Shown here piece by piece: positions 1 to 64,000 of a stretch of DNA of 64,000 nucleotides. Location: sequence record OL631257.1. One strand, written 5' to 3'. Made by a program: the position numbers and the translations under genes. The notes under the pieces were generated by a model. It searched no databases, was not told the DNA's origin, and worked only from the letters and a program-made list of their open reading frames with translations. The DNA is from Escherichia phage ECCR664. Position 1 is the first letter of the stretch. Every line of letters starts with the position of its first letter.

Positions 1-801
1 CTTTAGGTTCTTTAATAGGCTTAAGTTTATACATATTAGGGTTCTTCAGTTTAATTTGAATTCGAGAACTGAATAACATTGAACCGTTATCTTCAGTTTC
101 GCTGAACATTTCAACAACATCCATAGTCTGTAACATCATACGAAGTTTATAAGACAGCGAACGAACGGTTTTGTTGTGCTTATTAATTTCTTCAGCTTTC
201 ATGGTACCGAGATTACGTGAGTAGTAATAAGGAACCTGGATATCAATTGATAATGATGCGTTACCATTACCGGTTGGTTTGAATACTGCAGTAACCCAAT
301 CTTTAACATGAACTTTATTTGTACGACCATCACCGCCAGTGAATAATTTACGAGAATGTTTAAAAAGCATATTCACTTGGTTATTGAATTCACAAGCAAA
401 TTTATCAGCAAATTTAGTTTCAGGAATTGTAGATAACCAATCAGCTAAATGAGTCTTTTAACATCGTTAATAATAGTAAATTCAACCAAATCGGTTTTAG
501 ATGTCACAGATTTAATAAAGCTCGGTTTCATAAAGTTTTTAATGTTATCGCGAGCTACAGTAGAAGATAATAAACGAGAACGTTTGAACCATTGAAGCAG
601 CGTCCCTAATGAATGAGAATATGCATTTTGAGTATCTTTACAGATATGATTTTCTTGGCCGGTATATGTACCAAAATCGCGAAGAATACCACTTACTACA
701 TCTCGGTGTGGAACATCAAATCCTAATGAACCAGAAGCACGTTGGGCATGAACATTAGCGATAAGACCTGCAAAATAATCAATGTAATGTGAACGTGTCA
801 T
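1..801 (-). CDS. hypothetical early protein, 3' end beyond window; ORF 445-801 continues to position 1 in another frame after an apparent 1-bp frameshift near 445
   Basis: ORF 445..801 plus open frame continuing downstream (…THLADWLSTIPETKFADKF…); early-promoter motif upstream at 826-860. Confidence 0.4.
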
Positions 802-825
802 AATATTTTCCTCTCGTTAAGATAG

Positions 826-860
826 ATTCATTATACTCTAACCATCCTTGGTTGTAAACT
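826..860 (-). promoter_or_regulatory. early (sigma70-type) promoter motif: GTTTACA -35, 18-bp spacer, TATAAT -10, with short inverted repeat
   Basis: minus-strand reading AGTTTACAACCAAGGATGGTTAGAGTATAATGAATC. Confidence 0.6.
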
Positions 861-863
861 GAT

Positions 864-1821
864 TTATGATTTTAATGCATTCATTGCGTTAAAAAGTTTA
901 GAGTACTGCAACTGGAGATTGGTAACTACTTGTTGAGCATCACGAAGCTTAGCTTGTGCTTTGTCAAGTTCAACAGACAGTTGGTCCATAGTGGCCTTGA
1001 TTTGATTGTAATGGTAATCTTCGGCCGGAAGAAGGTCATTAGAAACATTTAGTTTTACTGCAGACAGTTTGCACACATTTGGCAAACCTTTAAACATTGA
1101 TTTACCCGAAGTAGAATAAGCACTTAAGACTTCGGCCTGTTCAATTGGGGTCCCAGTAAGCGATGCTTCAAACAATGCATTTTCCTTTTAAGATTTTGAT
1201 AGTATTCAGAGTCTTTGTGCCACCATGGCGCAGGAACCTTTTACCAATAGATACACGAGCCTGGATAGCGATATGGCCCTTATTCTTAATAGGGTTGATA
1301 ATATTAAGCTCACGAGAATAAATCGCTTTAATCTGGTGGATATTATCACCTAAAACTTCCAACGCTTGGTGGAATACACGAGCAACGTTATCATTCTTAG
1401 GTTTATACGTAAGAGTGAACTCATTCTCACTGATAACCATGATTTCTAACTTATCGTAAGTATATTTCAAATGTTTCATGTTAATTGCTTGAGGACGAAT
1501 ACGAGAAGCAATGGCCATCAGATTGTTAAGGTTATTTCGGAACTGTTTAGCGAAATATTGTCCTTCACCGCCGATACAAAAATTACGAAGTTTCTGTTTG
1601 GCTAATAAACGGCTGAACTCACCATTTTTAATGAACTCTTTAACGGGTGTGTTAGTAACGCATTCAAATTGAGTAAACTTACGAGAAGTAATCCCATAAT
1701 ATGAACAGATTTCCTCAATCTCTTCAGGAGTCTTTACAGGCATACGGATAGGATTAGGTCCTGGAGTATATGCGTTCGAGGTAAATTCTTTGATAAGTTC
1801 TCTACGTGTAATAAAAGCCAT
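864..1821 (-). CDS. hypothetical early protein (~318 aa), two ORF fragments joined across an apparent frameshift near 1175
   Basis: ORFs 1168..1821 and 864..1175 abut in different frames; early-promoter motif upstream at 1838-1875. Confidence 0.45.
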
Positions 1822-1876
1822 TTTATATTCCTCATGTTGAAAAATTTATTATACTCCAACCATCCTTGGTTGTACA

Positions 1877-2872
1877 TCATTCCTTAAGAAGTTTTACTAC
1901 TTGAATAAGATTAGCTCGTTCTGTTTTATTTTTACCATTTAAGCCTGCTAATCGTGAGATTTCATCGTCAGTCTGTTGAATAGTTACATTAAGTTCGTTA
2001 ATCAAAGCTTCAAAGTATTTGATTTGCTCAGCATGTTTTGATTCAAATTTCTGAACCGGAATAACGTCTTGGTTTAGTTCGTCAATAAGGTCTTTAAGAG
2101 CATCTTCTTGGTTGATATCGTATTCAACTTCTTTTATTTCTTCAACTAGCTCGTCTTTATATCTAACGTCTTTTAGTCCTGGTGCTGGTCCTGAAATCTC
2201 TTCTTTAAGAGTACAAACATACCCAATACGGTATCCAGTGTCGTCTCGCTTGATATCAACTTCGTCGATAAATCCACAATGTTTGAGACCAGAGCCGATT
2301 AGGTCAAAATATCCTTGACGACGTCCTTCAAACGTTACACGAACTACTAAGACAGTTTTGCCTGCAATCTTTTGAAGCTCACATTTATAAAAGTCAGTTG
2401 AACCTGAATAACGTGGATGAGTTTTAAAGTTCATCTGTCGATCTAGGCCCATTTGTAAACGTGCTGTTACGGCCATAAAACGTGTTTGGTTCTCGTTAAG
2501 ATGAGCAACAATCCATTTCAAAGGCATTTTACACTGTTCACGACCGAACAAATCAGTACGTCCTAGATTACGCAGGATGTTGTTAGAGTTAATCATCGAC
2601 AGAACGTTAAGTTTATTCAGCGCGCTGAAGATTCCATCAGCCATTGATTTTCCGTAGCCTTTACACGCTTTAATAAGCGCTCGCGGTAGATTAGTATAGA
2701 TTTCAGACGGCATATGAAAATCAAATTTACTAACCAGTAATTGATGAACTTGGATAGCAATTCGTTCATAATTAAGCGCTCTGCGATCATTATGGTCTTT
2801 AAACCACACTTTAATCTGTGAAGCACATAAACCGTTAATTTCATGTTTTATCGCATCAGATGTAATGCTCAT
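1877..2872 (-). CDS. hypothetical protein, 331 aa
   Basis: intact 331-aa ORF, no recognised motif. Confidence 0.5.
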   Translation of the reverse strand: MSITSDAIKHEINGLCASQIKVWFKDHNDRRALNYERIAIQVHQLLVSKFDFHMPSEIYTNLPRALIKACKGYGKSMADGIFSALNKLNVLSMINSNNILRNLGRTDLFGREQCKMPLKWIVAHLNENQTRFMAVTARLQMGLDRQMNFKTHPRYSGSTDFYKCELQKIAGKTVLVVRVTFEGRRQGYFDLIGSGLKHCGFIDEVDIKRDDTGYRIGYVCTLKEEISGPAPGLKDVRYKDELVEEIKEVEYDINQEDALKDLIDELNQDVIPVQKFESKHAEQIKYFEALINELNVTIQQTDDEISRLAGLNGKNKTERANLIQVVKLLKE

Positions 2873-2934
2873 AACTATTTCCTCAGATTGAATTGGAACT
2901 CAAAACCATTATAACCCGTCCTTGGGTAAAGCGT

Positions 2935-3460
2935 TTATGCGTGAACCGTCTTTAAACGTTCTTCAAATTTCCGAAGAGTACTAATACGTTCTGCTTTCTG
3001 TTTTGTATAGTTTGCAATACGTTCTGAAGTGAGAGCGTATCGTTCGTTTACTGTTTCTTTCATGAAGTCAGGGATTTCACGAGAAGCTTTAATTTCATCA
3101 AACTTATCGAGTACTGCCTGGTCTTCAGCGATTAAATTTTCGTACATCTCGATATCTTTCTTAATGAAGTCGATATCTTCCTGTGTTACTTTGGATAAAC
3201 GAGATGCTTTATCCTTTTGTACTGCTCGTTAGTTTCACGAGACCAGAATAATGTACGTTTTTGTTAGTGTTTTTGTAGACTTCCACAATTCCAACTGAAT
3301 CGATGATAACAATCCAATTCCAGCGAGATTTGAAAATCTGACCTCCATCCACGGTAATCTCATTACCATAAGCAACGTCATTAAAGAACTTGCTTTGTGC
3401 TTCAGATTTAAATTTACCGTCGTTATAATTTACCAGGTTGAAAATATCTTTAGCGTTCAT
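2935..3460 (-). CDS. hypothetical protein, possibly one gene split by a frameshift (ORFs 3209..3460 and 2935..3147)
   Basis: two collinear ORF fragments. Confidence 0.35.
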
Positions 3461-3518: not shown

Positions 3519-3830
3519 CTAAAAGAAACTTTTTCGGTATTTTTCCACTGAACCAAACCGACTTCGGGATTTTTGTAATTTTTCAGATTTAAGTTTCTCT
3601 TCCTGTTCTTTCTTATATACACCCTTGTCGTACTGGAGCATCTCTATGGCATTCTTTTGCAAACGATCTAAGGTAATTAAGGCTTTAGTTTTTCCTTTCA
3701 AGGAAGAGTCCTGGCGAACCTCCTCGCTATATTGCATTGTAGAACTAACCATACGATGAGCATAGAGTTCGACTGCTGCTTTGATTTTTGCATAAAATCC
3801 ATAACATATCCTCTTTGATTTGTACATCAT
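3519..3830 (-). CDS. hypothetical basic protein, 103 aa
   Basis: ORF 3519..3830. Confidence 0.35.
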   Translation of the reverse strand: MMYKSKRICYGFYAKIKAAVELYAHRMVSSTMQYSEEVRQDSSLKGKTKALITLDRLQKNAIEMLQYDKGVYKKEQEEKLKSEKLQKSRSRFGSVEKYRKSFF

Positions 3831-3940: not shown

Positions 3941-4940
3941 TTATTTCAGTAAAGTTACTTCGGAGATTTCCTCCCAACCATCTTTATCAGTTGAAATAAA
4001 ATCTGCTACATAAAGAGCCGTACGTAATGATACATTGCGAAGACGAGATACGTTAGCCTTCATCCAGGACAATGCTTTGTACGTTTCAGCATCAGTCAGA
4101 CCACGTTTCTGCATCATGTCAGTAGATAATATTACATCTTCAACTCGAACCATAATCTCTTCATTAGAGTGTACTCCAAGGTCGAGATACACTGAACGAG
4201 ATACTAAAGCTTGAAGGTGTGGAGCAAGTTTCGAACCACGTTCTAACTCTTTATCGATATCAACGTTTGTAATGAAAACGATAGTACCTTCAAACTCAAA
4301 TTCTTTATCAATACCCTTATCATCAAGATAAGATGACGCAGTGCTCCAACAAACTTTGCGTTTATCTCCGGTATCTAATGCTGCTTTAAGAAGGTTCAAG
4401 ATATCCATATCAGAGAATACATCAACATCGTCGATTAAGAGAACGCTGTCTGCATCACGGTTGAGCCAAAGTTGTTCGTAAAGGCCAATACCAGAGATTT
4501 TACCATTAATGCTTTTGTATTTGATGAAGCCATTATCATTAGCACTATTAAGTGCTTTATCCAGAGAATACGTCTTACCAATACCGGCTGCACCTGAAAT
4601 AATGAGTGAACGAATTTTGCCATCGATAATGCCATTCGTCATCATGTTCATTACTTTAAAGCGTTTGTTGATGCGAGTTTTCATATCTTCAGTGCTTTCA
4701 ACAACTGCAACTGGTGATGTCTCAACTCCTTCCATTACGATGTCTGATTTGAAGACCCATACTCCACGTTCAGAACCATCAATCATAACGAAAATTTTAC
4801 CATCACCTAAGTGGGAACATTCAGGATTAAGCTTTGCTGGGAACCAGGTCTTTGTGGCGACATAAGAACCAGAGATTTCGTTATTACGATAGATACCTTT
4901 TGATTTGAACGTTGAACATTTTATTCTCCAATTTACTCAT
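3941..4940 (-). CDS. P-loop ATPase (AAA-like), N-terminus apparently frameshifted
   Basis: Walker A GAAGIGKT, Walker B LLIDDVD, downstream FITN sensor-like motif in ORF 3941..4786; open frame continues upstream to ~4940. Confidence 0.55.
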
Positions 4941-5009
4941 TTCGTTTCGATAGGTCTATAATAACATATCCTAAAAGCATGTACACTACTTTTTAAAAAT
5001 ATTTTAACC

Positions 5010-5035
5010 CCTAAAGGGACCCGAAGGTCCCCACA
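5010..5035 (-). terminator. stem-loop (GGGACC-CGAA-GGTCCC) downstream of minus-strand gene 5037..5318
   Basis: perfect 6-bp stem with tetraloop; T-rich tract weak. Confidence 0.4.
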
Positions 5036-5036
5036 T

Positions 5037-5318
5037 TTACTTATCGCACTTAGCAACATAATTAGGCATATCACAGAATACGGAGCGAGTAACTACTCGA
5101 CCCTTTGACCATGCTTCAGTTGCTTGTCCGGCAGTGCTATTAATATAGCTTGATTTGATATTCTCAATACCCTGAGAATGTGATGCATTTACCGAACCGT
5201 TGGAAGGCCCAGAAGACTGGTTACCACCAGCTCCTGCACTACCGCTGGCTGCACCCGTGGTAGCACCAACAGAGAACGCCATCATTACTGCGAATAAACC
5301 AATTACTAATTTTTTCAT
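5037..5318 (-). CDS. small secreted/periplasmic protein (signal peptide, Gly/Ser/Ala-rich)
   Basis: N-terminal MKKLVIGLFAVMMAFSVGA hydrophobic leader; 93 aa. Confidence 0.5.
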   Translation of the reverse strand: MKKLVIGLFAVMMAFSVGATTGAASGSAGAGGNQSSGPSNGSVNASHSQGIENIKSSYINSTAGQATEAWSKGRVVTRSVFCDMPNYVAKCDK

Positions 5319-5413
5319 ATTTACCTCAAGTGAATGGTTATTTATCTATTTATAGTAAGAATTATGATTTTCGAGATAGACTTGCTCAAGGAAATCATCC
5401 CAGAAACTCATAT

Positions 5414-6334
5414 CTACTTTTGTTGCATACCGTTCTTAGCGGCTTGTTCTGATGCTTGTTCAACTTGGTCAACGATATCTTCTAGGAATTCTTGTACAGT
5501 TTTAAACGTATGTTTACCAAGCTTAACATCAAGAATAAATGGAGCATCCTGAAGCGGGTAAACCAGGTCACCGGTTTTGTAAATTTCCAATAATTGAAGT
5601 CCACCACGACATGCATGACTCAATGCTTTCCAGTCAATACCTTCGTTGGCTTCCGCCTTACGAGCACGTTCACCATAGTTCTCTTCCAGTTTAACCAGGA
5701 TGGCATTGAACTCTTTATTGGTTAACGTGTCTTGGAATTTACGGTCTAATAGATTATAGAATGTTTGCTTACCTGTTTTCTCGTTTTCGGTTTCAACCCA
5801 TGAAGCAAATTCACCTACAGGCAGAACATTCTTCATATGTGATAAACGAATTACCGCACCATTATCAAAGTATTGTCCCCATTCATTAGAACGTTTAAGG
5901 GCTTGACGAAGAACAGCCAGTCGAGAACCCTTGACACCATATTTAGAAGCTTGCTTACGGACATACCCTAAATAAGATTTCATGTTAGTGGTATAGAAAC
6001 GAGACCTGTTATCTTGAATATACTTCCATACATCAGGCAAATCAGATTTAACTACTAGACTTGGTGGGGTGTGAAGCATATCTAATGCGACGGTTTCACC
6101 ATCTGCAGCTAGTTTAAAGAAATATTTGAGACTATACAACTCGTGGTCCACGTCGTCTTTTGTGTTCTTAGAAGCAGTGTTGTTAGTGTTCTTGCTCATG
6201 TGTTCTTTAACGTTACCGGTCAAGATATCACGAGCATGAGGGACATAAATTTCTTTAAAATCGACGTCAGATTCAGGAGTAGACGTTCCATAAAGGTGGC
6301 TACCAAAGTAGCCTTTCATAATTGTTTTCATCAT
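5414..6334 (-). CDS. Pol-beta-superfamily nucleotidyltransferase-like protein
   Basis: N-terminal GSHLYGTSTPESDVDF matches the GS-x9-DxD nucleotidyltransferase motif; 306 aa with long C-terminal region. Confidence 0.5.
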   Translation of the reverse strand: MMKTIMKGYFGSHLYGTSTPESDVDFKEIYVPHARDILTGNVKEHMSKNTNNTASKNTKDDVDHELYSLKYFFKLAADGETVALDMLHTPPSLVVKSDLPDVWKYIQDNRSRFYTTNMKSYLGYVRKQASKYGVKGSRLAVLRQALKRSNEWGQYFDNGAVIRLSHMKNVLPVGEFASWVETENEKTGKQTFYNLLDRKFQDTLTNKEFNAILVKLEENYGERARKAEANEGIDWKALSHACRGGLQLLEIYKTGDLVYPLQDAPFILDVKLGKHTFKTVQEFLEDIVDQVEQASEQAAKNGMQQK

Positions 6335-6806: not shown

Positions 6807-7343
6807 TAATTCCTTATTTCAAAGTCGGGATAATAGAATCGAGATAAGCTTTAAGAGCAACTGCTTCATCTTTGTCTAATGTAATGATATGTTGACGAAG
6901 GTCATCAATTTGGCGAATAACTACAACATCACCGTCTTCATAAGAAGGATTAACGCTCAGGACTGTTGTATAGTCAGGGTTGTCCTGATTTGTAATAAAA
7001 GCATTACGACATTTAGCCCATTGAAGTTTGGCCTTTTGGCTGTTTCAGATTCCATGAATTCTTTCACTTTAGCGACGAATGTTTTCCAATTATTAATAGA
7101 AAAACATTCGTCTTCTGTTTCGATATTAACCCCACTATAAAGTCCGTGATAAAAACGAACTTGAAGGTCTTCATCAATGTTAATTACAGATGCATGGCCT
7201 GGTGGATTGAGTTTCAAAATCTTGTCCAGTTCCATAGGAAGAATAGTAACAGCATCATCTTCTTGCGTCAGAACGTAAGCATAACCGCGTTTTTCAATAC
7301 ATAAATCACCGAACAACTCTGTTGTTTCAATTACAGTTTTCAT
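6807..7343 (-). CDS. hypothetical protein, apparent frameshift near 7030
   Basis: ORF 6957..7355 (real start MKTVIETT) with open frame continuing to ~6807. Confidence 0.4.
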
Positions 7344-8152: not shown

Positions 8153-8181
8153 AAAAGCCCCAACCTTTCGGAAGGGGCTAT
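8153..8181 (-). terminator. rho-independent terminator after rI
   Basis: hairpin AGCCCC…GGGGCT with A-run on plus strand (T-run on minus); same ~27-bp sequence as at 24114-24142. Confidence 0.65.
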
Positions 8182-8185: not shown

Positions 8186-8487
8186 TTAGATAGATGTAGG
8201 CTCTAATTTTATTTTCATGAACTCAGCAAATTGTCTGGCGGTTTTTATGCCTTGTTCATGACATTCAAATGCATCATCACAGGGACTATTTTTGTAATGC
8301 TTTGCCATATACTTATAGAATTTTTCAGAATTCTCGACATTTTGAATTTCAAACAAAGTATATACGTTTTTAATCCCTGATTCCATAAAGTTATCAAAAT
8401 ATGGGTCGATATGTGCAGTACCAACGATAGGAGTTGTTGCTGCAAAAACCCCAGCATCGCTATGACAGCTATCGCTCTTAAGGCCAT
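8186..8487 (-). CDS. rI: lysis inhibition regulator rI (frameshifted, two fragments)
   Basis: N-terminus MALRAIAVIAMLG and C-terminus …FMESGIKNVYTLFE…CHEQGIKTARQFAEFMKIKLE resemble T4 RI; fragments 8245..8487 and 8186..8386 in different frames. Confidence 0.75.
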
Positions 8488-8739: not shown

Positions 8740-9319
8740 TTATAACAACCCTGTCAAATCATTCCAATGCTTCCGGCATAATGACACGTATCTATCAGTA
8801 TCACCAATTTCAATTTGACTGCCATCTGTAATTGGAAGTCCGTCTTCCGTGACTCTAGCTACCATTGTGGCCTTTTACCACAATGACAGACACCTTTAAG
8901 TTCAACAAGCTTATCGGCAATAGCCATTAATGCTTGAGAACCTTCAAATAGATTACCTTTAAAATCTGTTCGTAGTCCATATGCCATTACTGGCACATTG
9001 TATACGTCAACAATACGACTAAGTTGATACACCTTTTCAGTAGTTAAGAACTGAGCTTCGTCAACAAATACACAATGAATATCCTTTGTGCTGCAGCCCA
9101 TTTATAGAATTCAAAGATGTCCATGTCTTTTGTAATTATATTGGCATCCTGACGAATACCAATACGAGAGACTATTTCACCTTTTGAATCACGAGTATCA
9201 ATAGCCGGTTTAAGAACTAATACACCCATGCCACGTTCTTTATAGTTATGTGCGGCAGTAAGTAATGAAGCAGACTTACCAGCATTCATAGCGGCATATG
9301 TAAAAATTAAACTAGCCAT
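8740..9319 (-). CDS. tk: thymidine kinase (frameshifted in two places)
   Basis: [21 protein letters not shown]-loop; …VFVDEAQFL…CHCGK… as in T4 Tk; three collinear fragments. Confidence 0.9.
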
Positions 9320-9328: not shown

Positions 9329-9511
9329 TTATAGTGAATTCACGTAGTCAATGAGTTCTTGTTCTTTCCTGTCAAATGATTCCATCAATGCGTGATATTC
9401 TTCGTCCGTCAAAGGAGCATATTCATCGTACGCATTGGTGGCTGCTTGTTCATCCAATAGGTCATGGATAAGTTCGAACAGTTTAGCTTTCTCTTCTTTA
9501 GTCAATTTCAT
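9329..9511 (-). CDS. hypothetical acidic protein 60 aa
   Basis: ORF. Confidence 0.35.
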   Translation of the reverse strand: MKLTKEEKAKLFELIHDLLDEQAATNAYDEYAPLTDEEYHALMESFDRKEQELIDYVNSL

Positions 9512-9720
9512 TTAGGTTCACCTTCTTTAACGAAATCTGGGTAAGGGTAAAATCCTGAGTAAAACCCTTCACCTTTATGATTACTACAACCTTTGTTCGA
9601 ACAGTAACACCAATAATCAAAATCACAAGCCATTTCGTCATTGCATAAAGCAAAAACTACAGGCCATTCGCATTTTTCGCATTTAGCGCCTGTAAGAATT
9701 TTTGTTTGGCTCATAACCAT
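9508..9720 (-). CDS. small Cys-rich protein (possible Zn-binding)
   Basis: CEKCEW…C…C…CYCSNKGCSNH cysteine pattern. Confidence 0.4.
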   Translation of the reverse strand: MVMSQTKILTGAKCEKCEWPVVFALCNDEMACDFDYWCYCSNKGCSNHKGEGFYSGFYPYPDFVKEGEPK

Positions 9721-11274: not shown

Positions 11275-11731
11275 CTAGATTTTAATCACTGCTTTAGAAG
11301 CTTTTCCTGGTAGTCGTTTACTGTTAATAATAGCCATTCTGCATTGAAGAGTCTTCATTTTGAATGCTGGATTTTCGCGACAGACTGTAAGTCCTAACCA
11401 AAGATTTCCGTCAGTTATTTCTAAACGGCCTGGGCGATATTCGACACCTTCGACAAAATCTTCATCAACATCTGGACGTGCCGGCATTGATAAAAATTCT
11501 GCAACTTCTTTAACATGATTTTTACTTTATGAAATAATTCAAAACGTAATTCTCATCTATTTCTCTCTGGATGGCACGATCTAAGAGATGTTGAGAATAC
11601 TTGATATGAAAGCCTGGTAGTCCAAGAGACTTTGCAGCATCTTTTATACCGGCATTTATTTTGCGGAACTCCGTTTCAAAGATTCGACGGAGTTTATTAC
11701 GGCGGATAAAAACGTCAGAATTGATAGTCAT
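11275..11731 (-). CDS. regB: endoribonuclease RegB (frameshifted)
   Basis: MTINSDVFIRRNKLRR…HLLDRAIQREIDE and …GVEYRPGRLEITDGNLWLG…CRMAIINS…LPGKASKAVIK match T4 RegB in two fragments. Confidence 0.85.
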
Positions 11732-11740
11732 TTTTGATTT

Positions 11741-11793: not shown

Positions 11794-12009
11794 TTATTGA
11801 TAAAATGGAGTTAAAGCCCAAGATTCTTTAGATACCATATTGGCGAAATGCCTCATCTCTTCGATTTGGCGACGACGCTGGTCAGCATAGTCTTCTTCAC
11901 CTTCTTCCTTACAATCTTCAAGGTCTTCTTCAAGATACTTTAAGTATTCACTACAAATTTTGTTGACCTTTTCTTGAAAGTCCAATAACCCGGTAATAGT
12001 AGAAGCCAT
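11794..12009 (-). CDS. hypothetical acidic protein 71 aa
   Basis: ORF. Confidence 0.35.
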   Translation of the reverse strand: MASTITGLLDFQEKVNKICSEYLKYLEEDLEDCKEEGEEDYADQRRRQIEEMRHFANMVSKESWALTPFYQ

Positions 12010-12851: not shown

Positions 12852-12874
12852 ATAACCTCAATTAGAAAATAAAT

Positions 12875-13165: not shown

Positions 13166-13175
13166 TGCATTCCAA

Positions 13176-24806: not shown

Positions 24807-24883
<77 letters not shown>

Positions 24884-45968: not shown

Positions 45969-46903
<935 letters not shown>

Positions 46904-48543: not shown

Positions 48544-50867
<2,324 letters not shown>

Positions 50868-50894: not shown

Positions 50895-52876
50895 ATGGCA
50901 CTTCTCTCTCCGGGCGTTGAGCTCAAAGAAACTACCGTACAGAGTACTGTAGTTAATAACTCCACTGGTACTGCTGCCCTGGCTGGAAAATTCCAATGGG
51001 GACCTGCATTCCAGATTAAACAAATCACTGATGAAGTTGCATTAGTTGATATGTTTGGTACTCCTAATACGGATACAGCAGATTATTTCATGTCTGCTAT
51101 GAACTTCCTTCAATACGGTAATGACCTTCGTGTTGTACGCGCAGTTGATCGTGATACTGCTAAGAACTCATCTCCTGTAGCAGGCAATATTGAATTCACA
51201 ATCTCTGCCGCTGGTAGTAACTATGCGGTTGGTGATAAAATTATCGTTAAGTATTTGACCGAAACTGTTGAAGCAGATGGTTATGTCACTTCAGTTGATG
51301 TCGATGGTAAAATTCTTAACATTTATATCCCAACCGGTAAAATTATTGCTCGTGCAAAAGAAATTAATGAATATCCGGCATTGGGTTCTAACTGGACCGC
51401 CGAAGTTGCCAGTTCTTCTTCTGGACTCTCTGGCGTTATTACAATTGGTTCTATCGTAACCGATTCAGGTATTCTGTTGACTGAAGTTGAAACTTCAGAA
51501 GAAGCTATTACTTCTCTAACTTTCCAAGAATCTATTAAAAATATGGTGTCCCAGGCGTAGTTGCTCTTTATCCTGGTGAACTTGGCGACCAGCTCGAAAT
51601 TGAAATCGTATCTAAAGCAGACTATGACAAAGGTGCTTCAGCCCAGTTAAAAATTTATCCTGATGGCGGTACTCGTGCATCTACTGCTAAAGCAATCTTT
51701 GGATATGGCCCACAAACTGATGACCAATATGCAATTATCGTTCGTCGTAACGATGCTGTAGTCCAGAGCGTAGTTCTTTCTACTAAACGTGGTGAACGAG
51801 ATATTTATGGTAGTAATATCTTTATTGATGATTTCTTTGCTAAAGGCGCAAGCAATTATATTTTCGCTACTGCACAAGGTTGGCCAAAAGGTTTCTCTGG
51901 CGTAATCAAACTGAGTGGTGGCTTATCATCTAATGAAACGGTCGACGCTGGTGATTTAATGGAAGCTTGGGATTTGTTTGCTGACCGCGAATCTGTTAAT
52001 GCGCAGTTGTTTATTGCCGGTTCTTGTGCAGGTGAATCTTTAGAAGTTGCTTCTACAGTTCAGAAACATGTTGTAGCAATTGGTGATTCTCGCCAAGATT
52101 GCTTGGTTCTTTGCTCACCACCACGTTCAACTATAGTCGGTATTCCTGTTAATCGTGCAGTTGATAATCTTGTTGATTGGCGTACTGCATCAGGAACTTA
52201 CACTGATAATAACTTTAATGTAAGTTCTACTTATGCTGCTATTGACGGTAACTATAAATATCAATATGACAAATATAATGATGTGAATCGTTGGGTTCCA
52301 TTAGCTGCTGATATCGCTGGTCTTTGTGCTCGTACAGACAATATTTCTCAGCCTTGGATGTCTCCGGCTGGTTATAACCGTGGACAAATTCTTAACGTTA
52401 TTAAGCTTGCAATTGAAACTCGTCAACCACAACGTGATCGTTTGTATCAGGAAGCTATTAACCCTGTTACTGGTACCGGTGGTGATGGATATGTTCTGTA
52501 TGGTGATAAAACTGCCACTTCTGTTCCTTCACCATTTGACCGTATTAACGTTCGTCGTTTGTTCAATATGGTTAAAACGAACATTGGTTCAGCATCTAAA
52601 TATCGCCTGTTTGAATTGAACAACGCATTTACCCGTTCTTCTTTCCGTACAGAGACTTCTCAATATCTACAGGGTATTAAAGCTCTCGGTGGTGTATATA
52701 ACTTTAAAGTTGTTTGTGATACTACCAATAACACCCCAGCAGTTATCGACCGTAATGAATTTGTAGCTACTTTCTACTTACAACCTGCCCGCTCGATAAA
52801 TTATATTACGTTGAACTTTGTAGCAACAGCAACTGGTGCCGATTTCGACGAACTGATTGGTGCTGTAGGTGGTTAA
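50895..52876 (+). CDS. 18: tail sheath protein gp18 (one frameshift at A-run ~51537)
   Basis: MALLSPGVELKETTVQSTVVNNSTGTAALAGKFQWGPAFQ…; total ~660 aa as T4 gp18. Confidence 0.95.
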
Positions 52877-52988: not shown

Positions 52989-53478
52989 ATGTTTGTAGAT
53001 GACGTAACTCGTGCCTTCGAATCTGGTGATTTCGCTCGCCCTAACCTGTTCGAAGTAGAAATCTCTTATCTTGGGCAAAACTTTAGCTTCCAGTGTCGTG
53101 CTACGGCTCTTCCTGCTGCGATCGTTGAAAAGGTTCCTGTTTCTTATATGAACCGTAAAATTAACGTGGCAGGTGACCGTACATTTGACGATTGGACTAT
53201 TACAGTAATGAATGACGATGCTCATAGTATTCGTCAGAAATTTGTTGATTGGCAAGGTATTGCAGCAGGACAAGGTAATGAAATTACCGGTGGTAAACCT
53301 GCTGAATATAAAAGACTGCTATCGTTCGTCAATTTGCTCGTGATGCTAAAACGGTCACTAAAGAAGTTGAAATTGTTGGCTTGTGGCCTACTAACGTCGG
53401 CGAAGTATCTCTTGACTGGGATTCGAATAACGAGATTGAAACGTTCGAAGTAACTCTTGCTCTTGATTGGTGGGAATA
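52989..53478 (+). CDS. 19: tail tube protein gp19 (one frameshift at A-run ~53310)
   Basis: MFVDDVTRAFESGDFARPNLFEVEISYLGQNF… matches T4 gp19. Confidence 0.95.
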
Positions 53479-53527
53479 ATCTGGTTGGGGAGAAATCCCC
53501 AGCTTCCCGTGATGACGGAGAAGTCCA

Positions 53528-53563: not shown

Positions 53564-55132
53564 ATGAAATTTAATATCTTAAGTTTGTTTGCTCCATGGG
53601 CAAAAATGGACGAACGTGATTACAAAGACCAAGAAAAGAAAATTTAGAATCGATCACCACACCAAAATTAGACGACGGCGCTAAAGAATACGAAGTATCT
53701 GAAAATGAAGCACAGCAAACATATAATGCTATGTTTCAGAGAATGTTCGGTAGCCAAGAACCAGGGCTCAAATCAACGCGTGAATTAATCGATACGTATC
53801 GAAATTTGATGACGAACTATGAAGTGGATAATGCAGTCTCTGAAATAGTTTCCGATGCTATCGTATATGAAGATGATACAGAAGTCGTTTCTATAAATTT
53901 AGACAACACAAAATTTAGTCCAAATATCAAATCAATGATGTTGGATGAATTTAACGAAGTGTTAAATCATTTATCTTTCCAACGTAAAGGTTCAGACCAT
54001 TTTAGACGTTGGTACGTAGATTCTCGAATTTTCTTCCATAAAATTATTGACCCTAAACGCCCTAAAGAAGGTATTAAAGAGCTTCGTCGTTTAGACCCAC
54101 GTCAAGTTCAATATGTCCGTGAAGTTATTACAACCACTGAAGCTGGTGTTAAAATAGTCAAGGGTTATAAAGAATATTTCATTTATGACACATCACACGA
54201 ATCTTATGCTTGTGATGGTCGCATATATGAAGCTGGCACAAAAATAAAAATCCCTAAAGCCGCGATTGTTTATGCCCATTCTGGTTTAGTTGATTGTTGT
54301 GGTAAAAATATCATTGGTTATTTGCATCGGGCTATTAAGCCGGCGAACCAATTAAAACTTCTTGAAGATGCCGTCGTAATTTATCGTATTACTCGTGCTC
54401 CAGATCGTCGTGTATGGTACGTTGATACAGGTAATATGCCTTCAAGAAAAGCAGCAGAACATATGCAACATGTTATGAATACGATGAAAAACCGTATTGC
54501 ATATGATGCCACTACAGGCAAGATTAAAACCAACAGCATATTATGTCGATGACCGAAGATTATTGGTTACAACGACGTGATGGTAAAGCAGTAACAGAAG
54601 TTGATACATTACCGGGTGCAGATAATACTGGAAATATGGAAGATGTACGTTGGTTCCGTAATGCGCTTTATATGGCTTTACGTATTCCTATTACCCGTAT
54701 TCCAAGCGACCAAGGTGGTATACAGTTTGATGCTGGTACTTCTATTACACGAGATGAATTGTCATTTGGTAAATTTATTCGTGAGCTGCAACATAAATTT
54801 GAAGAGATATTCCTAGACCCGCTTAAAACTAATTTAATTCTTAAAGGAATTATTACAGAAGATGAGTGGAATGATGAAATAAATAATATTAAGATAAAAT
54901 TTCATCGGGATAGTTATTTCTCGGAATTAAAGGATGCTGAGATTCTGGAGCGTCGCATTAATATGCTTCAGATGGCCGAACCATTTATTGGTAAATATAT
55001 TTCTCACAGAACAGCTATGAAAGATATTCTTCAGATGTCTGACGAGGAAATTGAACAAGAGGCTAAGCAAATTGAAGAAGAGTCGAAAGAGGCTCGTTTC
55101 AAGACCCCGACCAAGAACAAGAGGATTTTTAA
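53564..55132 (+). CDS. 20: portal protein gp20 (at least three frameshifts)
   Basis: [25 protein letters not shown]…; …[13 protein letters not shown]…; …[32 protein letters not shown]… matches T4 gp20. Confidence 0.95.
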
Positions 55133-55368
55133 TGGACGATTTAATTCAAGCTATTAAATCAAACGACCTCGTTGCTACTCGAAAGTTTTTGAAAGTGCAA
55201 TGGCAGAAAAAACGGTTCGTTTGATTGAAGCACGCAAAGCAGAAATCGCTTCTCAATTTTTGATTGAAGGCGAAGAACCTGAAGAAGAAAAGAAAGCTAA
55301 AGCTTCGGAAGACGACGCTGATGAAGGCGATGACGACGAAGACGAAGATGATGAGGACGATGAATAAT
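55132..55368 (+). CDS. 67: prohead core protein gp67 (one frameshift at T-run ~55186)
   Basis: [19 protein letters not shown]…; acidic C-terminus …[15 protein letters not shown] in shifted frame. Confidence 0.85.
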
Positions 55369-55779
55369 GTATCTTATCCCTGAATCTTATGAATTGGTAC
55401 TCGAAAATGTCGAAGCACTTATTCCTGAAGCACAGGGCCGAATCGATGCATTGTCTTCTGCTCTCGATATTGACGATATAAATACTATTATCGAGAACAT
55501 GCTTGAAACTGAAACGGATTTAGCTGTTGCAATGGCTTCCATTATTAATGAAGAACAGTTAAATGAGTTTATCGTTAAACATGTTTCTTCTCGTGGTGAA
55601 GTCACCCGCACTAAAGACCGTAAAACTCGTGAACGTAACGCGTTCCAAACAACCGGTCTTTCTAAAGCAAAACGTAGACAAATCGCTCGTAAGGTCGTTA
55701 AAGCTAAAAAGCTAACCCTTCAGGCCAAGTTAAAGGCATGCGTAAGCGTAAAAAGCTCTTAAACGTCGTAAAGCATTAG
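55367..55779 (+). CDS. 68: prohead core protein gp68 (C-terminal frameshift)
   Basis: position between gp67 and gp21; basic C-terminus …[12 protein letters not shown] in shifted frame. Confidence 0.75.
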
Positions 55780-55789
55780 GATTAAGCTA

Positions 55790-56431
55790 ATGAATAAACC
55801 CGAGTTACTTATTGAAACTTGGGGTCAACCCGGTGAGATTATTGATGGCGTTCCAATGTTGGAATCTCATGATGGAAAAGATTCTGGCTTAAAACCAGGG
55901 CTTTATATAGAAGGTATTTTTCTTCAGGCAGAGGTTGTTAACCGAAATAAACGTTTATATCCTAAACGCGTTTTGGAAAAAGCAGTAAGTGACTATATTA
56001 AAGAACAAGTCGCAACCAAACAAGCCCTTGGAGAATTAAACCATCCACCTCGCGCAAATGTTGACCCTATGCAAGCCGCTATCATTATTGAAGATATGTG
56101 GTGGAAAGGAAACGATGTATATGGACGCGCTAGAATTATTGAAGGTGACCATGGTCCCGGTGATAAATTAGCTGCTAATATACGAGCTGGTTGGATTCCA
56201 GGTGTTTCCTCTCGTGGTCTTGGTTCTTTAACCGACACCAATAAAGGGTACCGTATCGTGAACGAAGGATTTAAATTAACCGTCGGTGTAGATGCCGTAT
56301 GGGGACCTTCTGCTCCAGATGCTTGGGTTACTCCTAAACAAATATCAGAATCAGAAAATTCGGTGGAAATCACCAAAAACAGTGCTGATGAAGCATTTAA
56401 AGCTCTCGCAGAGAGTTTAAAAGCATTATAA
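55790..56431 (+). CDS. 21: prohead core scaffold / protease gp21
   Basis: …LLIETWG…GEIIDGVPMLESHDGKD…LGELNHPPRANVDPMQAAIIIEDMWWKGNDVYGRAR… matches T4 gp21. Confidence 0.95.
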   Translation: MNKPELLIETWGQPGEIIDGVPMLESHDGKDSGLKPGLYIEGIFLQAEVVNRNKRLYPKRVLEKAVSDYIKEQVATKQALGELNHPPRANVDPMQAAIIIEDMWWKGNDVYGRARIIEGDHGPGDKLAANIRAGWIPGVSSRGLGSLTDTNKGYRIVNEGFKLTVGVDAVWGPSAPDAWVTPKQISESENSVEITKNSADEAFKALAESLKAL

Positions 56432-56464: not shown

Positions 56465-57276
56465 ATGATCAAAGAACAACTTTTGAAAGAAGCTCAGAAC
56501 ATCGAGACTTCAGTTGCTCTTAATAGTGTTTTCGAATCAGTAGAACTGTCTCCGGACGTTAAAGCTAATTTCAGCACTGTATTCGAAGCCACCGTTAAGC
56601 AGGAAGCAGTCAAACTGGCTGAATCTCATATCAAAGCCATCGCCGAAAAGGCTGAAGAAGAAGTTGAAAAGGCCAAAGAAGATGCTGAAGAGAAAGCTGA
56701 TAAAAATTGGCTGAACAAGCTTCTAAATTCCTAGACCATCTTGCAAAAGAATGGCTCACAGAAAACCAAATCGCAGTTGATAAAGGCATTAAAGCTGATT
56801 TGTTTGAATCCATGCTTGGTGGTCTGAAAGAACTGTTTGTTGAACATAACGTTGTTGTTCCAGAAGAATCTGTAGATGTTGTAGCAGAAATGGAAGAAGA
56901 GCTGGCCGAACATAAAGAAGAAACCGCTCGTTTGTTCGAAGAAGTTACCAAACGTGATGCATATATCAATTACGTTCAGCGTGAAACCGCTATTAATGAA
57001 AGCGTAAAAGACCTGACTGAATCTCAGAAAGAAAAAGTTATTGGCCTGGTTGAAGGTATGGATTATTCTGACGCATTTGGTACTAAGTTAACTGCTATTG
57101 TAGAAATGGTTAAAGGTTCTACTAAAGAAGAAGCCGCTATTACCGAAAGTATAAATACAGTTGACAATGACGCTGCCGGTCTTAATTTTGTTGCCGAAGC
57201 AGTTGACACTACCACAACTCAGGTAGAACAGAATTCTAATGTAAGTTTATATGCGAAAGTCGCATCTCGTTTCTAA
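56465..57276 (+). CDS. 22: prohead core scaffold protein gp22 (one frameshift at A-run ~56702)
   Basis: two fragments of 89 + 189 aa, acidic coiled-coil protein; position. Confidence 0.9.
57150..57157 (+). promoter_or_regulatory. late promoter TATAAATA inside gp22 3' end (gp23)
   Basis: exact motif ~140 nt upstream of gp23 start. Confidence 0.5.
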
Positions 57277-59258: not shown

Positions 59259-59284
59259 ATCTATATCACATAAGGAAAAATGCA

Positions 59285-60567
59285 ATGAGTAAAATCCAAA
59301 AATTATTGCGTGAATCTACAACGTCTACTAGCAACTCAATCGGTCGCCCAAATCTCGTTGCTTTGACTCGCGCTACGACTAAATTAATATATTCTGACAT
59401 TGTGGCAACACAAAGAACTAATCAACCTGTTGCTGCTTTTTATGGTATTAAATATCTTAACCCAGACAACGAATTAACATTTAAAACTGGTGCTACTTAT
59501 GCCGGTGAAGCTGGATATGTAGACCGAGAAAAAATTACCGAGCTCACAGAAGAATCAAAAGTCACACTAAATAAAGGCGATTTTTTCAAATATAATAATA
59601 TCGTCTATAAAGTGTTAGAAGATACACCGTTTGCAGATATTCAGGAAAGTGATCTAGAATTAGCTCTTCAGATTGCGGTCGTTCATTTAAAGGTACGGCT
59701 ATTTTCAGATGCAGCGGTAACAAGCAAATTTGAAAGCTCTGGTAGCGAAATTTCTGATGCAAGATTCCAGATTAATAAATGGCAAACTTCAGTCAAATCT
59801 CGTAAACTTAAAACCGGCCTCACGGTTGAATTAGCGCAAGATTTGGAAGCGAATGGATTTGATGCCCCTAACTTCTTAGAAGATTTGCTTGCTACTGAAA
59901 TGGCTGATGAAATTAATAAAGATATTCTTCAGTCTTTAATTACTGTATCGAAACGTTATAAAGTTACTGGAATTACTGACACCGGATTTATTGACTTGAG
60001 CTATGCGTCTGCTCCGGAAGCAGGTCGTTCGTTATATCGAATGGTGTGTGAAATGGTATCACACATTCAAAAGAGTCAACTTATACTGCAACGTTTTGCG
60101 TAGCTTCAGCTCGTGCAGCTGCTATTCTTGCTGCTTCGGGTTGGTTAAAACATAAGCCGGAAGATGATAAGTACCTTTCACAAAATGCTTATGGATTCTT
60201 GGCAAATGGATTACCTCTTTACTGCGATACCAACAGTCCGTTAGATTATGTTATTGTGGGTGTTGTAGAAAATATCGGCGAAAAAGAGATTGTAGGGTCC
60301 ATCTTTTATGCTCCATACACTGAAGGAATGGATTTAGACGACCCGGAACATGTCGGTGCATTTAAAGTTGTAGTTGATCCGGAAAGCTTACAACCGTCTA
60401 TAGGTTTATTGGTTAGATATGCTTTATCAGCAAATCCTTACACAGTAGCAAAAGATGAAAAAGAAGCTAGAGTAATTGATGGCGGGGACATGGATAAAAT
60501 GGCAGGACGTTCAGACTTGTCTGTTTTACTCGGTGTTAAATTGCCTAAAATTATTATAGATGAATAA
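59285..60567 (+). CDS. 24: capsid vertex protein gp24 (one frameshift at A-run ~60069)
   Basis: two fragments totalling ~427 aa; gp23-like fold expected from position and size. Confidence 0.9.
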
Positions 60568-60600: not shown

Positions 60601-61597
60601 TTATGATACTAATTCAATCCATGCAGGACGCAGAACATCTTGCACCATTCGGACTAATTCTTTCTTAACAAGACTCGGGTCATCGGATGATGTTAATACA
60701 ATACCTTCACGAGAAGTTTCTTCCAGAATATCTTGAACAGTCAATCCCATCACTTTGCCAAAATCTTTTGGCGTTACTGTCCCAATCTTAGAAATCACAT
60801 TGTTAACACGATTTAATGTAACATAACAAGCTAGAACATCAAGCAAGTTTTTGTCAATTTCGGTTAATGGAACCTGAGTTTTAATAGGCTTATCAGACTT
60901 TTCTTTTCACTGAATTTAGAGTTCTTGCACTTAATAGCTACACGAGTACCGTTTGGCAGCCATTTAGGAAACAAGGCTTCAGAACATAACCTTCTGCCGT
61001 ATTATCACCAATAACATTAGCATCAAATACACAATTATTTGCTTCGACAAGGTCTTCTGACGCAGTAGCATTATAAGCGGCTAAGACGGAATCAAGGTCA
61101 TTTGGAATCATGATAAGAGAATCAAATGTTCCACGACCAAGCATTGGTGCCATTTTAAAACCAAATTCATTACAGAAATCTTGCATTTCGTAATCGGTCA
61201 AATACGTATTATCACCACTTTCTGTATTGATAATGATATCGAACACATAAAAATCTTTTTCACCGTAGTCAACACCTTTCTGGATTCCACCACCAGCGAA
61301 TTCACCGAATACTTGATATGATACGGCTCGAGCTGTGTACATGAATTCCTGAACGGCTTTAATAGCTTTATCATACTTCTTGAGTACGATTTCATAACCG
61401 TAAAAATCTTCTGCTGGAAGAATAGGGCCTGTGCGCTTGGCGCATGTGACGTTGTCACGTTCAATAATTAAACTAAAGTTGGTCCCATGGATTTTCTCAC
61501 GTGCTACCCAAACACCAGTAGTCAAACCATTAGTGTAGAGTTTTTCAATAAACTTAGAGTTGTAGTGGTTTTCAAGACTGCTGTATTTCTTAAACAT
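60601..61597 (-). CDS. rnlB: RNA ligase 2 (RnlB), frameshifted
   Basis: [21 protein letters not shown]…[18 protein letters not shown] (ligase KxHG motif) and C-terminus …VISKIG…[18 protein letters not shown]… match T4 Rnl2. Confidence 0.9.
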
Positions 61598-61715
61598 AAA
61601 TCACCATTATAAATAATAATATCAAAATAATTAGCAGAGACTCTATCTCCGACCCGATGTTTAATTTGAATGGATAGAACCTAGATTCATTATACCATCA
61701 AAAATGTAAAGCATA

Positions 61716-61967
61716 TTAGAACTTGATTTCTATCCAATGCCCATCACGTTGGTCATGATTAATTTTGTACTGAAAGCCGTTATCACGAAGCCACTGACCG
61801 ACTTGCTCGGTGATAGTTAAATCATTCTTTGATGGATAGTACGTGAATTGTGTCTGACCTTTGTCAGCGGCTTTCTCTGCCATCGCAGAGAAGTTAGTAA
61901 TAAAATCACTCAGCAAATTAGCTTTAGTGGCCAGAGCCCTTTCTCTTAATTCCTGTGCAAAACTCAT
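61716..61967 (-). CDS. hypothetical protein (T4 24.2 position)
   Basis: ORF 83 aa. Confidence 0.4.
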   Translation of the reverse strand: MSFAQELRERALATKANLLSDFITNFSAMAEKAADKGQTQFTYYPSKNDLTITEQVGQWLRDNGFQYKINHDQRDGHWIEIKF

Positions 61968-61985
61968 TTCTTCACCTTTTGTTAA

Positions 61986-62168
61986 TCAAACGTTTACGGT
62001 ATACAACTTTTCTTTTGCTTTAAACTTTGACCGAGCTGTCTCGGCTTTAGTCCATAGTAATCCAACTTCTTTAGGTTGTAAACCAATTTTTTGAGCAATT
62101 TCTACGAATGAAAATCCCGCCTCATGTAATGTATAAACTTCAACTTCAGCTCTCATAATCAATCCCAT
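61986..62168 (-). CDS. small protein, possible helix-turn-helix (T4 24.3 position)
   Basis: ORF 60 aa …EAGFSFVEIAQKIGLQPKEVGLLW…. Confidence 0.35.
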   Translation of the reverse strand: MGLIMRAEVEVYTLHEAGFSFVEIAQKIGLQPKEVGLLWTKAETARSKFKAKEKLYTVNV

Positions 62169-62221
62169 ATTATTTGGTTTGTGCCATTATATACATTGAT
62201 CTCAAGTTGTGTTTTGTATGC

Positions 62222-62252
62222 TTTAAAAACGAAGAAAGGGGCCGAAGCCCTT
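62222..62252 (-). terminator. stem-loop after hoc
   Basis: GGGC-CGAA-GCCC with A-rich tract on plus strand. Confidence 0.45.
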
Positions 62253-62256
62253 ACGA

Positions 62257-63385
62257 TTATGGATATGTATAGATGATACCAGTTTCCAAAGCAGTTTTAT
62301 GGATGATGTATCCATTACGCGATTCTTGAACATCAACTTCTGGGTAGTCTTTCATCATCTTCTGAAGAGTGTAACGATGCAGGTAGTATTTACTATCTGG
62401 ATCTTCAGTTTTCCAATCTTTACCTTCTTCAGTCATTTTTGTATTTCATCCATAACCCACCAACCGCACCAGATGTAAGCTGAAGTACGATGTGGAAGAG
62501 GATGAACATAAGGTAATTCACCTTCTGGTTCTGGAGCAACTTTATCAGTCACTTGAACTTGACCTTCTGCTGTAATAGTTTTGCTATCATAGTCATCTGC
62601 AGTAACGACGGCAGTAACTTCAATAGTTTGACTTCCAACAGATGAAGTATCAACTGTATATACATTAGTTGACCCTTCTACAGGAGAAGAATCTTTCTTC
62701 CATGAATACGTAATTTGCGCTTCTTCTGGAGCATCAGTGACATTAGCGGTAAATGTAGCTGAAGCATCTTGCTGAACGTTAATAGAAGGAGGAGTCAATG
62801 TAACCTGTGGATTCATTGTCTTCTTATTAACCGTTAATGATACTTCATTCGAAGTAACTTCCTTTGCATCATAATCTGTTGCGGTTACTTGGGCTACGCA
62901 TTTAATTCTTTTACTCCACTTGTAGTTGGAGTATAGCTAAATGTAGAGTTAGTTTCTCCACCAACTTGTGAATCATCTACATACCACTGATACGTAGCAG
63001 ACGCTCCAGCAGGTTGAGAAGCTAAGGCAGCAGTAAATTGAACTTGGGTTCCAATTACTCCAGCTGAAGGACTATTGGGAGTTACTGCCAACGTAGTTGA
63101 CTGAGTTTTATTTTTAACCGTGATAGTCGTAGTAATTTCTGCTGTTTCAGCGTCAGTATCAGGAATAGTATTTGTTGCAACAACTTTAATTGTTTTTGTT
63201 CCAGCGGGTCCTTTTAACACATAATCAAAAGTTTCTGCCGATCCTACTTGAGGAGCATCGTCTACACTCCATGCATAGGTAATAGTTCCACCTCCAGTTT
63301 CACCACTGGGAGTAGCAGTAAACTGCTTAGTCTCGTCTATAACTCCAGTAGGTGTTTTAGGAGTTATATCAACTGTAAAAGCCAT
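62257..63385 (-). CDS. hoc: highly immunogenic outer capsid protein Hoc (frameshifted)
   Basis: MAFTVDITPKTPTGVIDETKQFTATPSG… Ig-like repeats; C-terminus …YVHPLPHR…WCGWWVMDEIQK… matches T4 Hoc. Confidence 0.9.
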
Positions 63386-63394
63386 AAGTTATCC

Positions 63395-64000
63395 TTATTT
63401 TAATGTTACGAAAGAAGAATTACGAGTTTCACGAATTAGAACTGATCCATCGCGATTAATATAATAAATTAAGCTAAATAATGTTTGGTGAGCAGAAGCA
63501 TGCACAAAACTAGTTGGGCGAGATTTCCAATCTGGGGTTTCGGCTATCCATTGATAAATCCACCAAGGAACAGTAACATATCCTGGGCCTTTGCCTAATT
63601 TAATGAGTGTAGGACTAAAATTTTCAGGCAGAACAAAATTTATCTTTATTTACTTCTGTCTCAGGCTCTTTTTCAGATTCAACAACCTGAGTAATTGCTT
63701 CTTCAAATTTATCATGGTCGAATTCTTTTTCTTGTTCGACAACTTCTAATACTTCAACTTGGTCTGTTGGAGAATCAAACAACAGAATAGCTTCTTCTTT
63801 AACTTCTTCGTTGGTGAAATTAACACCGTCCACATCATCTGCGGCAGTAATTAAATCGGTGATAGATAATCCATCAGTTTCAGGTAACGGTTCATCAGCC
63901 AGTGCGTTAAGAGCTTCTTCGATATCAATAACAATATTATCGAATGATTTTGTTTTCTTAACACTAATGCCAAATTGTTCTGCATATTCAAACAGTTTAG
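63395..64000 (-). CDS. inh: probable inh (prohead protease inhibitor) homolog, partial, frameshifted
   Basis: acidic ORF 63624..63833 plus shifted C-terminal continuation; assignment by position downstream of hoc only. Confidence 0.45.

Follow-up and report, generated by a model that had tools for sequence, protein, structure and literature searches.

In the 64,000-nucleotide stretch of Escherichia phage ECCR664 analysed here (sequence record OL631257.1; hereafter the window), structural genes are visible in the list of open reading frames (ORFs) as collinear fragments, which raises the question of whether the breaks lie in the phage or only in its recorded sequence. The tail sheath gene gp18, for example, appears as 50895–51560 and 51959–52876, gp7 as 35422–37176 and 37173–38519, gp5 as 30900–32147 plus later fragments, and the large terminase gene gp17 as 49031–50230, 50266–50571 and onwards. 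Systematic under-calling of homopolymers in the consensus of a viable T4-like phage, most likely a nanopore-type consensus, would in all likelihood account for the split genes. The comparative evidence set out below shows the missing bases, as judged from sequence, to be an artefact.

The window is a T4-like coliphage segment of the Mosigvirus type. Its gene order is collinear with that type, running from the nrdC region through tk, regB, denV, e, the tRNAs and gp1–gp24 to hoc, at 96–98% identity. The minus-strand part comprises the nrdC–mobD region, rI, tk, vs, regB, denV, e, a tRNA cluster, ipI and 57A/B; the plus-strand part comprises gp53 and gp5 to gp24, followed by rnlB, hoc and inh. Escherichia phage Mizar is collinear with the window and 98.3% identical to it over 24 kb, and ATK47, LH01, HX01, ST0 and ~100 further records are comparably close; the early-gene half is 96–97% identical to JS09, SA79RD and others. 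The LH01 and SA79RD records are classified as Straboviridae, Tevenvirinae, Mosigvirus. As references we used the 65-kb stretches of Mizar, LH01 and SA79RD that are homologous to the window, along with their annotation, in which the same genes stand as single coding sequences (CDS); the closest genomes compared are only 96–98% identical to the window.

Relative to these three references, the window lacks ~90 bases at 86 sites, of which 81 lie in homopolymers (runs of four or more) and 5 in short or adjacent runs. At ~1.3 sites per kb, half of all genes are affected (45 of 89 mapped CDS), and 12 sites fall outside mapped CDS, mostly in intergenic positions. In the BLAST alignment to Mizar, the window shows 100 gaps of one base and 24 insertions of that size; nearly all of the gaps are A/T runs reduced from five to four or from six to five bases. 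The original prediction, made from the letters of the window, had described at least 25 genes split by single-base deletions in homopolymers and had taken the deletions for a sequencing artefact. Both the ORF list and the Mizar alignment bear out the splitting, but the number of genes was too low, and the description of the lesions fits most sites rather than all, since four events (at 4898, 28241, 30225 and 42308) remove two bases and the short or adjacent runs are hit as well.

Run length, sequence context and the source of the losses

A count of indels inside and outside homopolymers, proposed with the original prediction, finds them concentrated inside homopolymers, running in one direction and dependent on run length. 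For each reference homopolymer, the aligned run length in the window was read off, with matching flanks required. A/T runs of one to three bases show essentially no change, and ~1% of runs of four are shortened against each of the three references. The proportion then climbs to 16% for runs of five (31–32 of ~190) and ~75% for runs of six (30–31 of 41–43); the runs of seven and eight are both shortened, giving ~77% for runs of six or more. Among C/G runs of five, 1/2 to 2/3 are shortened, depending on the reference. No run of five or more is lengthened in the window relative to the three references. In the three reference-versus-reference controls, only 0–2 length changes per class occur (0–1% at every run length). 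Because the controls reach 0–1% where the window reaches 16% for runs of five and ~77% for runs of six or more, the shortening is far beyond chance. A simple census agrees: the window holds 15 A/T runs of six or more and each reference 52.

For five-base runs, the neighbouring bases all but settle whether a base is lost. With all runs oriented as A, A5 followed by G is shortened in 28 of 50 cases, compared with 4 of 142 when C or T follows (Fisher p = 5e-16), and A5 followed by T is never shortened. The 5′ neighbour grades the effect further, from CAAAAAG (10 of 10 shortened) through TAAAAAG (13 of 18) to GAAAAAG (5 of 22). All reductions of A4 to A3 relative to Mizar occur in AAAAG. The strand that carries the A-run is irrelevant (15 of 89 for A on the plus strand versus 17 of 103 for T). 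A substitution-error signature, for instance a cytosine-linked one, was looked for among the window-specific substitutions and none was found; the substitution spectrum of the window is indistinguishable from those of the references, and thus only run lengths are wrong.

Such a pattern would arise if the sequencing, base-calling or consensus step reported homopolymers one base short and occasionally two. The real DNA would almost certainly carry full-length runs, the genes being split only in the file, and the likeliest source would be a long-read (nanopore-type) consensus that had not been polished with accurate reads. Given an artefact, nanopore is probably the platform, because the profile is deletion-only, the threshold over runs of four, five and six is steep, the failure is worst where an A-run abuts G (AAAAAG, or CTTTTT on the other strand), and substitutions are accurate. 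Nanopore reads underestimate homopolymer length, with deletions predominating as length rises, and A-runs are read less well beside G than beside T, since A and G give similar current levels (PMC8486125). In phage assemblies with homopolymer errors, single genes come out as two or three annotated proteins, an effect that polishing with short reads removes (PMC10438801).

An artefact could also have come from elsewhere, namely flow-based sequencing (454 or Ion Torrent), the consensus of early PacBio reads, or the collapsing of runs by an assembler or polisher. We regard such a source as unlikely, though it deserves weighing: run-length-dependent homopolymer errors are generally known to be typical of flow-based sequencing as well, and the window lacks the cytosine-linked substitution noise that native nanopore reads of hydroxymethylcytosine DNA might show. 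However, the errors are strictly deletions and ~77% of runs of six or more are already wrong in the consensus, whereas flow-based errors are known to be bidirectional and for runs of 5–6 mostly average out at consensus depth. The strong dependence on a 3′ G and on the 5′ neighbour also fits the signal-level explanation given for nanopore reads (PMC8486125). It is less likely still that the CAAAAAG/CTTTTTG rule might be the footprint, on the raw signal, of glucosyl-hydroxymethylcytosine beside a T-run, as opposed to a generic base-caller bias. The published account of A next to G is enough without such a footprint, and cytosine-linked errors of any other kind are not seen.

Selection, repair and the case for real deletions

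Were the deletions real, the window would represent a non-viable, heavily pseudogenised or mutagenised genome produced by Streisinger-type slippage. A/T runs are known as genuine frameshift hot spots in T4, and a bare sequence leaves formal room for real deletions, yet we consider this very improbable. The rate of shortening takes no account of function: ~60% of susceptible runs in baseplate, sheath, tube, portal and terminase genes are shortened, the same rate as in non-essential genes and intergenic stretches. For A5G runs, the shortened fraction is 0.59 among structural and essential CDS, 0.57 among the remaining CDS and 0.40 between genes; for A≥6 runs it is 0.65, 0.83 and 1.0, respectively. 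The difference is significant for neither run type (Fisher p = 0.78 and 0.16). Context rates and run content together predict 49.9 unhit genes, and 50 are observed. Genes gp6, gp8, wac, gp14, gp15, gp16 and gp2 are intact because they contain no susceptible run, neither A≥6 nor A5G; that gp6, gp8 and wac, along with gp12 and gp23, had escaped was already correctly recognised from the sequence. Real slippage is also hard to reconcile with the complete lack of +1 events in runs of five or more, with an outcome that is nearly deterministic by heptamer context, or with a lytic phage, which has no lifestyle able to carry 45 broken genes.

Substitutions provide a separate view of whether the frames were truly lost. 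We scored window-specific codon changes, defined as changes found in the window alone at codons on which the three references agree. In the reference frame, 80% of these are synonymous (n = 511), as compared with 79–84% in the intact references. Downstream of the first break in a gene the figure is 77% (140 of 181), whereas in a gene whose frame had truly been lost it would be expected to drift towards ~25%, with ~75% of changes non-synonymous. The 23% of changes that are non-synonymous downstream of breaks resemble those of intact genes, and the original frame still bears the mark of purifying selection there, which again speaks against real deletions.

Inserting the missing bases in silico raises the number of full-length CDS, meaning those that run from the reference start to the reference stop at reference length, from 46 to 84 of 91, in line with the earlier expectation that restoring bases would give full-length proteins. 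Among those not scored as restored, regB and hoc were misjudged by translation from the start codon, as the regB start abuts a differing run and Mizar has a longer Hoc; we therefore used tblastn against SA79RD proteins, to which regB, hoc and the Mizar_123 homologue each give a single full-length match after repair. The y06B product (70 versus 63 amino acids, aa) is unchanged by repair and represents a small natural length difference, and the other unrestored CDS are divergent in the window or absent from it. In a BLAST search of the phage collection, the three-base loss in gp11 was shared by none of 104 matching records and the one-base loss in gp18 by none of 148, so that no related genome examined shares the tested deletions. 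Only 1–2 IMG/VR contigs match the gapped patterns, all with longer runs.

The same comparison bears on a last alternative, that the deletions are real but that transcriptional slippage or +1 ribosomal frameshifting at the A/T runs makes up for them when the genes are expressed. In some endosymbionts, frameshifted genes are generally known to be rescued by slippage on long poly(A) tracts, but the idea hardly survives here: recoding sites would be expected to be conserved, yet at the gp11 and gp18 sites all three references and the 104 and 148 records carry the in-frame run rather than the two-frame arrangement; the window runs are just 3–5 bases, far below the tract lengths generally held to slip efficiently; runs outside mapped genes, mostly intergenic, are shortened too; and ~70 independent high-efficiency sites in the most abundant virion proteins are not credible.

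Several points count against under-calling as the explanation, or against its attribution to a nanopore platform. The case for an artefact is built on comparison with related genomes rather than on read pile-ups. DNA of the T-even type usually carries modified cytosine, from which a wider disturbance of native nanopore base-calling is expected; since no excess of substitutions is found despite this, the platform assignment is less secure than the verdict of an artefact. The lack of cytosine-linked noise would mean that the sequenced DNA had been amplified or that such noise was absorbed in the consensus. In gp24 (59285–60567), just 1 of 6 susceptible runs (two A≥6 and four AAAAAG) is shortened where ~3.9 would be expected, the biggest departure from the context model among 94 genes, which may reflect chance or a local coverage or context effect. 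Finally, automatic repair drew on any single reference, and 12 of the 81 run sites rest on one alignable reference; any individual site among these might be natural variation. The single-reference call at 17378 (LH01 only) proved wrong, as the inserted base broke the Mizar_123 homologue; it was dropped, and less confidence attaches to the remaining sites of this kind. Taken together, every computable test that had been proposed for the artefact, and several further ones, agree with systematic under-calling.

Affected loci and natural variation

In what follows, run lengths are given as window/references, so that T4/T5 denotes T4 in the window and T5 in the references. All affected genes from the window start to gp4 lie on the minus strand. 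The Mizar CDS 089 homologue, cut by the window start, has T4/T5 at 456–459, truncating ORF 445–801. The nrdC.5-like gene y05A (864–1821) carries T4/T5 at 1186–1189 and 1239–1242 and grows from 217 to 319 aa on repair; nrdC.8 (2935–3460) carries T4/T5 at 3215–3218 and T5/T6 at 3258–3262; and y05F (3941–4919) has T4 at 4898–4901 where the references have T6, with two bases absent. Single T4/T5 losses affect a nucleotidyltransferase gene (5347–6331; site 5418–5421) and y05I (6814–7343; 7034–7037). Among the genes already named as broken by the original prediction, rI (8186–8487) has A5/A6 at 8444–8448; tk (8740–9319) has T4/T5 at 8873–8876 and T3/T4 at 9085–9087; regB (11275–11732), a single 152-aa match after repair, has T5/T6 at 11519–11523 and A4/A5 at 11541–11544; and denV (14366–14778) has A3/A4 at 14599–14601 in an AAAAG context. 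Between regB and denV, vs.7 (12858–13165) shows T4/T5 at 12885–12888 against one alignable reference only, and the Mizar_115 homologue (13162–13699) shows A5/A6 at 13180–13184 and lacks a C beside a T5 run at 13427.

A series of small early genes follows. T5/T6 runs occur in the homologues of Mizar_121 (16086–16321; 16241–16245), Mizar_123 (16809–17494; 17021–17025), Mizar_127 (19119–19357; 19266–19270) and Mizar_129 (19627–19898; 19718–19722), as well as in e.5 (20912–21513; 21113–21117); the Mizar_124 homologue (17496–17799) combines T5/T6 at 17550–17554 with A4/A5 at 17743–17746. An Ig-like protein gene (18139–19094) has A4/A5 at 18683–18686. The interval 22231–22759, with the SA79RD_142 homologue and frd.3, has A4/A5 at 22405–22408 and T5/T6 at 22536–22540; the SA79RD_145 homologue (23044–23341) lacks a G from an A-rich run at 23096 and has T5/T6 at 23313–23317; the Mizar_137/LH01_146 homologue (23451–24069) has T7/T8 at 23697–23703 and T4/T5 at 23897–23900; and the Mizar_143 homologue (25043–25557) has T4/T5 at 25275–25278. 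The minus-strand block ends with three further genes on the earlier list: gp1, for dNMP kinase (27524–28255; A4/A5 at 27776–27779, and A3 at 28241–28243 where the references have A5, two bases being absent), gp3 (28309–28892; A3/A4 at 28681–28683) and gp4 (29819–30263; A5/A6 at 30029–30033, A4/A5 at 30170–30173, T5 at 30225–30229 against T7, and T4 at 30233–30236 against T5 or T6).

From gp5 to gp24 the affected genes lie on the plus strand, and many of their sites had been placed exactly by the original prediction. These are gp5 (30900–32631; T4/T5 at 32029–32032 and 32217–32220; 415 to 577 aa on repair), gp5.4 (33151–33443; A4/A5 at 33364–33367), gp7 (35422–38519; A5/A6 at 37156–37160; 584 to 1032 aa), gp13 (45978–46903; T5/T6 at 46155–46159), gp18 (50895–52876; A5/A6 at 51537–51541), the tail tube gene gp19 (52989–53479; A4/A5 at 53310–53313), gp67 (55132–55367; T5/T6 at 55186–55190), gp22 (56465–57276; A5/A6 at 56702–56706) and gp24 (A4/A5 at 60069–60072), together with all three sites in gp9 (39589–40458; T5/T6 at 39595–39599, A4/A5 at 39796–39799, and G for GG at 40131) and in the portal gene gp20 (53564–55132; A4/A5 at 53634–53637 and 54526–54529, and C for CC at 55100). 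In two further genes, three sites needed moving by 7 to ~30 bases. In gp10 (40458–42261), the window indeed reads A5 at 40528–40532, with the predicted A6 present in SA79RD only and AAAAGA in Mizar and LH01, and a second site put at ~41305 is real but lies ~30 bases away, as A4/A5 at 41273–41276. In gp17 (49031–50864), the two sites put at ~50205 and ~50559 are A4/A5 runs at 50192–50195 and 50552–50555. Beyond the genes then listed, ~20 small early genes are affected, as are gp5.1 (32635–33148; T4/T5 at 32702–32705 and A5/A6 at 33055–33059) and gp68 (55367–55790; A5/A6 at 55706–55710, and A5 at 55750–55754 for A6 in LH01 and AAAAAGG in the other references). Back on the minus strand, rnlB (60601–61597) has T4/T5 at 60899–60902 and GG for GGG at 60967–60968, gene 24.3 (61964–62156) has T4/T5 at 61977–61980 and 62008–62011, and hoc (62257–63385) has T5/T6 at 62436–62440 and T4/T5 at 62909–62912; rnlB and hoc, too, had been named as affected.

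Two genes remain open despite their losses. In y05E (3519–3802, minus strand), T5/T6 runs at 3530, 3540, 3570 and 3785 include a cluster, the first three (3530–3574), that totals –3; in gp11 (42261–42917, plus strand), T4 at 42308–42311 (T6 in the references) and A5/A6 at 42321–42325 also sum to –3, with the net loss of one residue. In both, the ORF stays open while the intervening codons are wrong, and such errors would escape ORF-based checks.

Intergenic runs are shortened at 5008–5011 and 23421–23424 (both C4/C5), 8153–8156 (A4/A5), 24242–24244 (A3/A4), 59276–59280 (A5/A6, directly upstream of the gp24 start), 61700–61704 (A5/A6) and 62248–62250 (C3/C4). The intergenic A5 at 24114–24118 is ambiguous, being A6 in two references and A5 in one. 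Three sites are of low confidence: G3 versus G4 at 13718–13720, in a divergent stretch with a sole alignable reference, which may be natural variation; T3 versus T4 in one reference at 22166–22168, where the e.6 ORF is intact as given; and T3 versus T4 in one reference at 26419–26421, at the edge of a genome-variable region. Both shortened C5 runs share the intergenic motif A-CCCC(C)-TAAA, which hints at an element repeated between genes, perhaps the stem or loop of terminator-like structures.

Within the tRNA region, ARAGORN calls a 94-nt 'tRNA-Stop (anticodon tta)' at 24183–24276 (minus strand) that would resemble an ochre suppressor. The call has no Rfam support and no equivalent in Mizar, LH01 or SA79RD, and it vanishes after bases are restored at 24242 and 24114; it is a false positive made by under-calls. 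Nearby, tRNA-Arg(tct) and tRNA-Met(cat) are adjacent in the window (24807–24963, minus strand), LH01 and SA79RD, whereas in Mizar they are separated by a NUMOD3/DUF559 homing-endonuclease-like gene and a tRNA-Asn, a presence/absence polymorphism of a mobile element in the tRNA cluster.

Other differences from the references also appear to be natural. After repair, Hoc corresponds to the 376-aa form of SA79RD and LH01, to which its single SA79RD match extends in full, rather than to the 472-aa form of Mizar; its N-terminal third is 82% identical to SA79RD and the remainder 96–100%, consistent with natural domain-level variation in this capsid decoration protein. Five stretches of the window have no Mizar counterpart (9332–9709, 11801–12003, 13798–14358, 22234–22523 and 22782–23082), the last two matching small SA79RD genes (SA79RD_142 and SA79RD_144 homologues), and these would represent the usual mosaic of small early genes among Mosigvirus genomes. 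Non-homopolymer, in-frame indels relative to Mizar occur in gp21 (–6 nt at 56344), rnlB (–9 nt at 61325–61340) and the Mizar_095 homologue (+15 nt at 5237–5256). The non-homopolymer indels in hoc, rnlB, hyp095 and gp21 were excluded from the artefact as natural variation, being paired or multiples of three and lying in divergent stretches.

Consequences and comparison with known error and frameshift systems

The fragmentation of genes in the window is thus a problem of data quality and not a real feature of the phage. It matters solely in practice, by providing a list of corrections and a caution for downstream annotation, and adds no new biology. Left uncorrected, the sequence would yield ~45 falsely split or truncated genes, stretches of gp11 and y05E that are open but garbled, a spurious suppressor tRNA and, in later surveys, exaggerated numbers of "pseudogenes" and "novel small ORFs". 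Targeted correction or masking becomes possible with the list of sites and the rule on context (A/T runs of six or more, and AAAAAG/CTTTTT). Should the footprint of modified cytosine nevertheless prove true, error motifs in unpolished long-read assemblies could offer a cheap indicator of hypermodified phage DNA.

Among known systems, programmed frameshifting and transcriptional slippage share with the window neighbouring, collinear ORFs that are offset by one base at a run, but the sites in the window are unconserved and lie at runs of insufficient length, intergenic runs suffer to the same degree, and the breaks extend to dozens of genes instead of one or two. Streisinger slippage at the A/T runs of T4 shares the type of sequence; unlike the losses in the window, it gives both +1 and –1 changes, is purged in essential genes, and would not strike most susceptible runs at once. 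Flow-based sequencing (454/Ion Torrent) likewise produces length-dependent errors restricted to homopolymers, although these are known to comprise over- and under-calls and to be rarer in the consensus for runs of 5–6; no comparable dependence on the flanking base is known for them. Compared with nanopore long-read-only assemblies, the window differs in that the density of errors is high and its context rule is unusually sharp, with every CAAAAAG shortened (10 of 10). In all other respects compared, the window behaves as these assemblies do: deletions dominate and rise with run length, A-runs beside G are read worst, genes are fragmented, and substitutions in the consensus are accurate (Delahaye & Nicolas 2021, PMC8486125; Elek et al. 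2023, PMC10438801).

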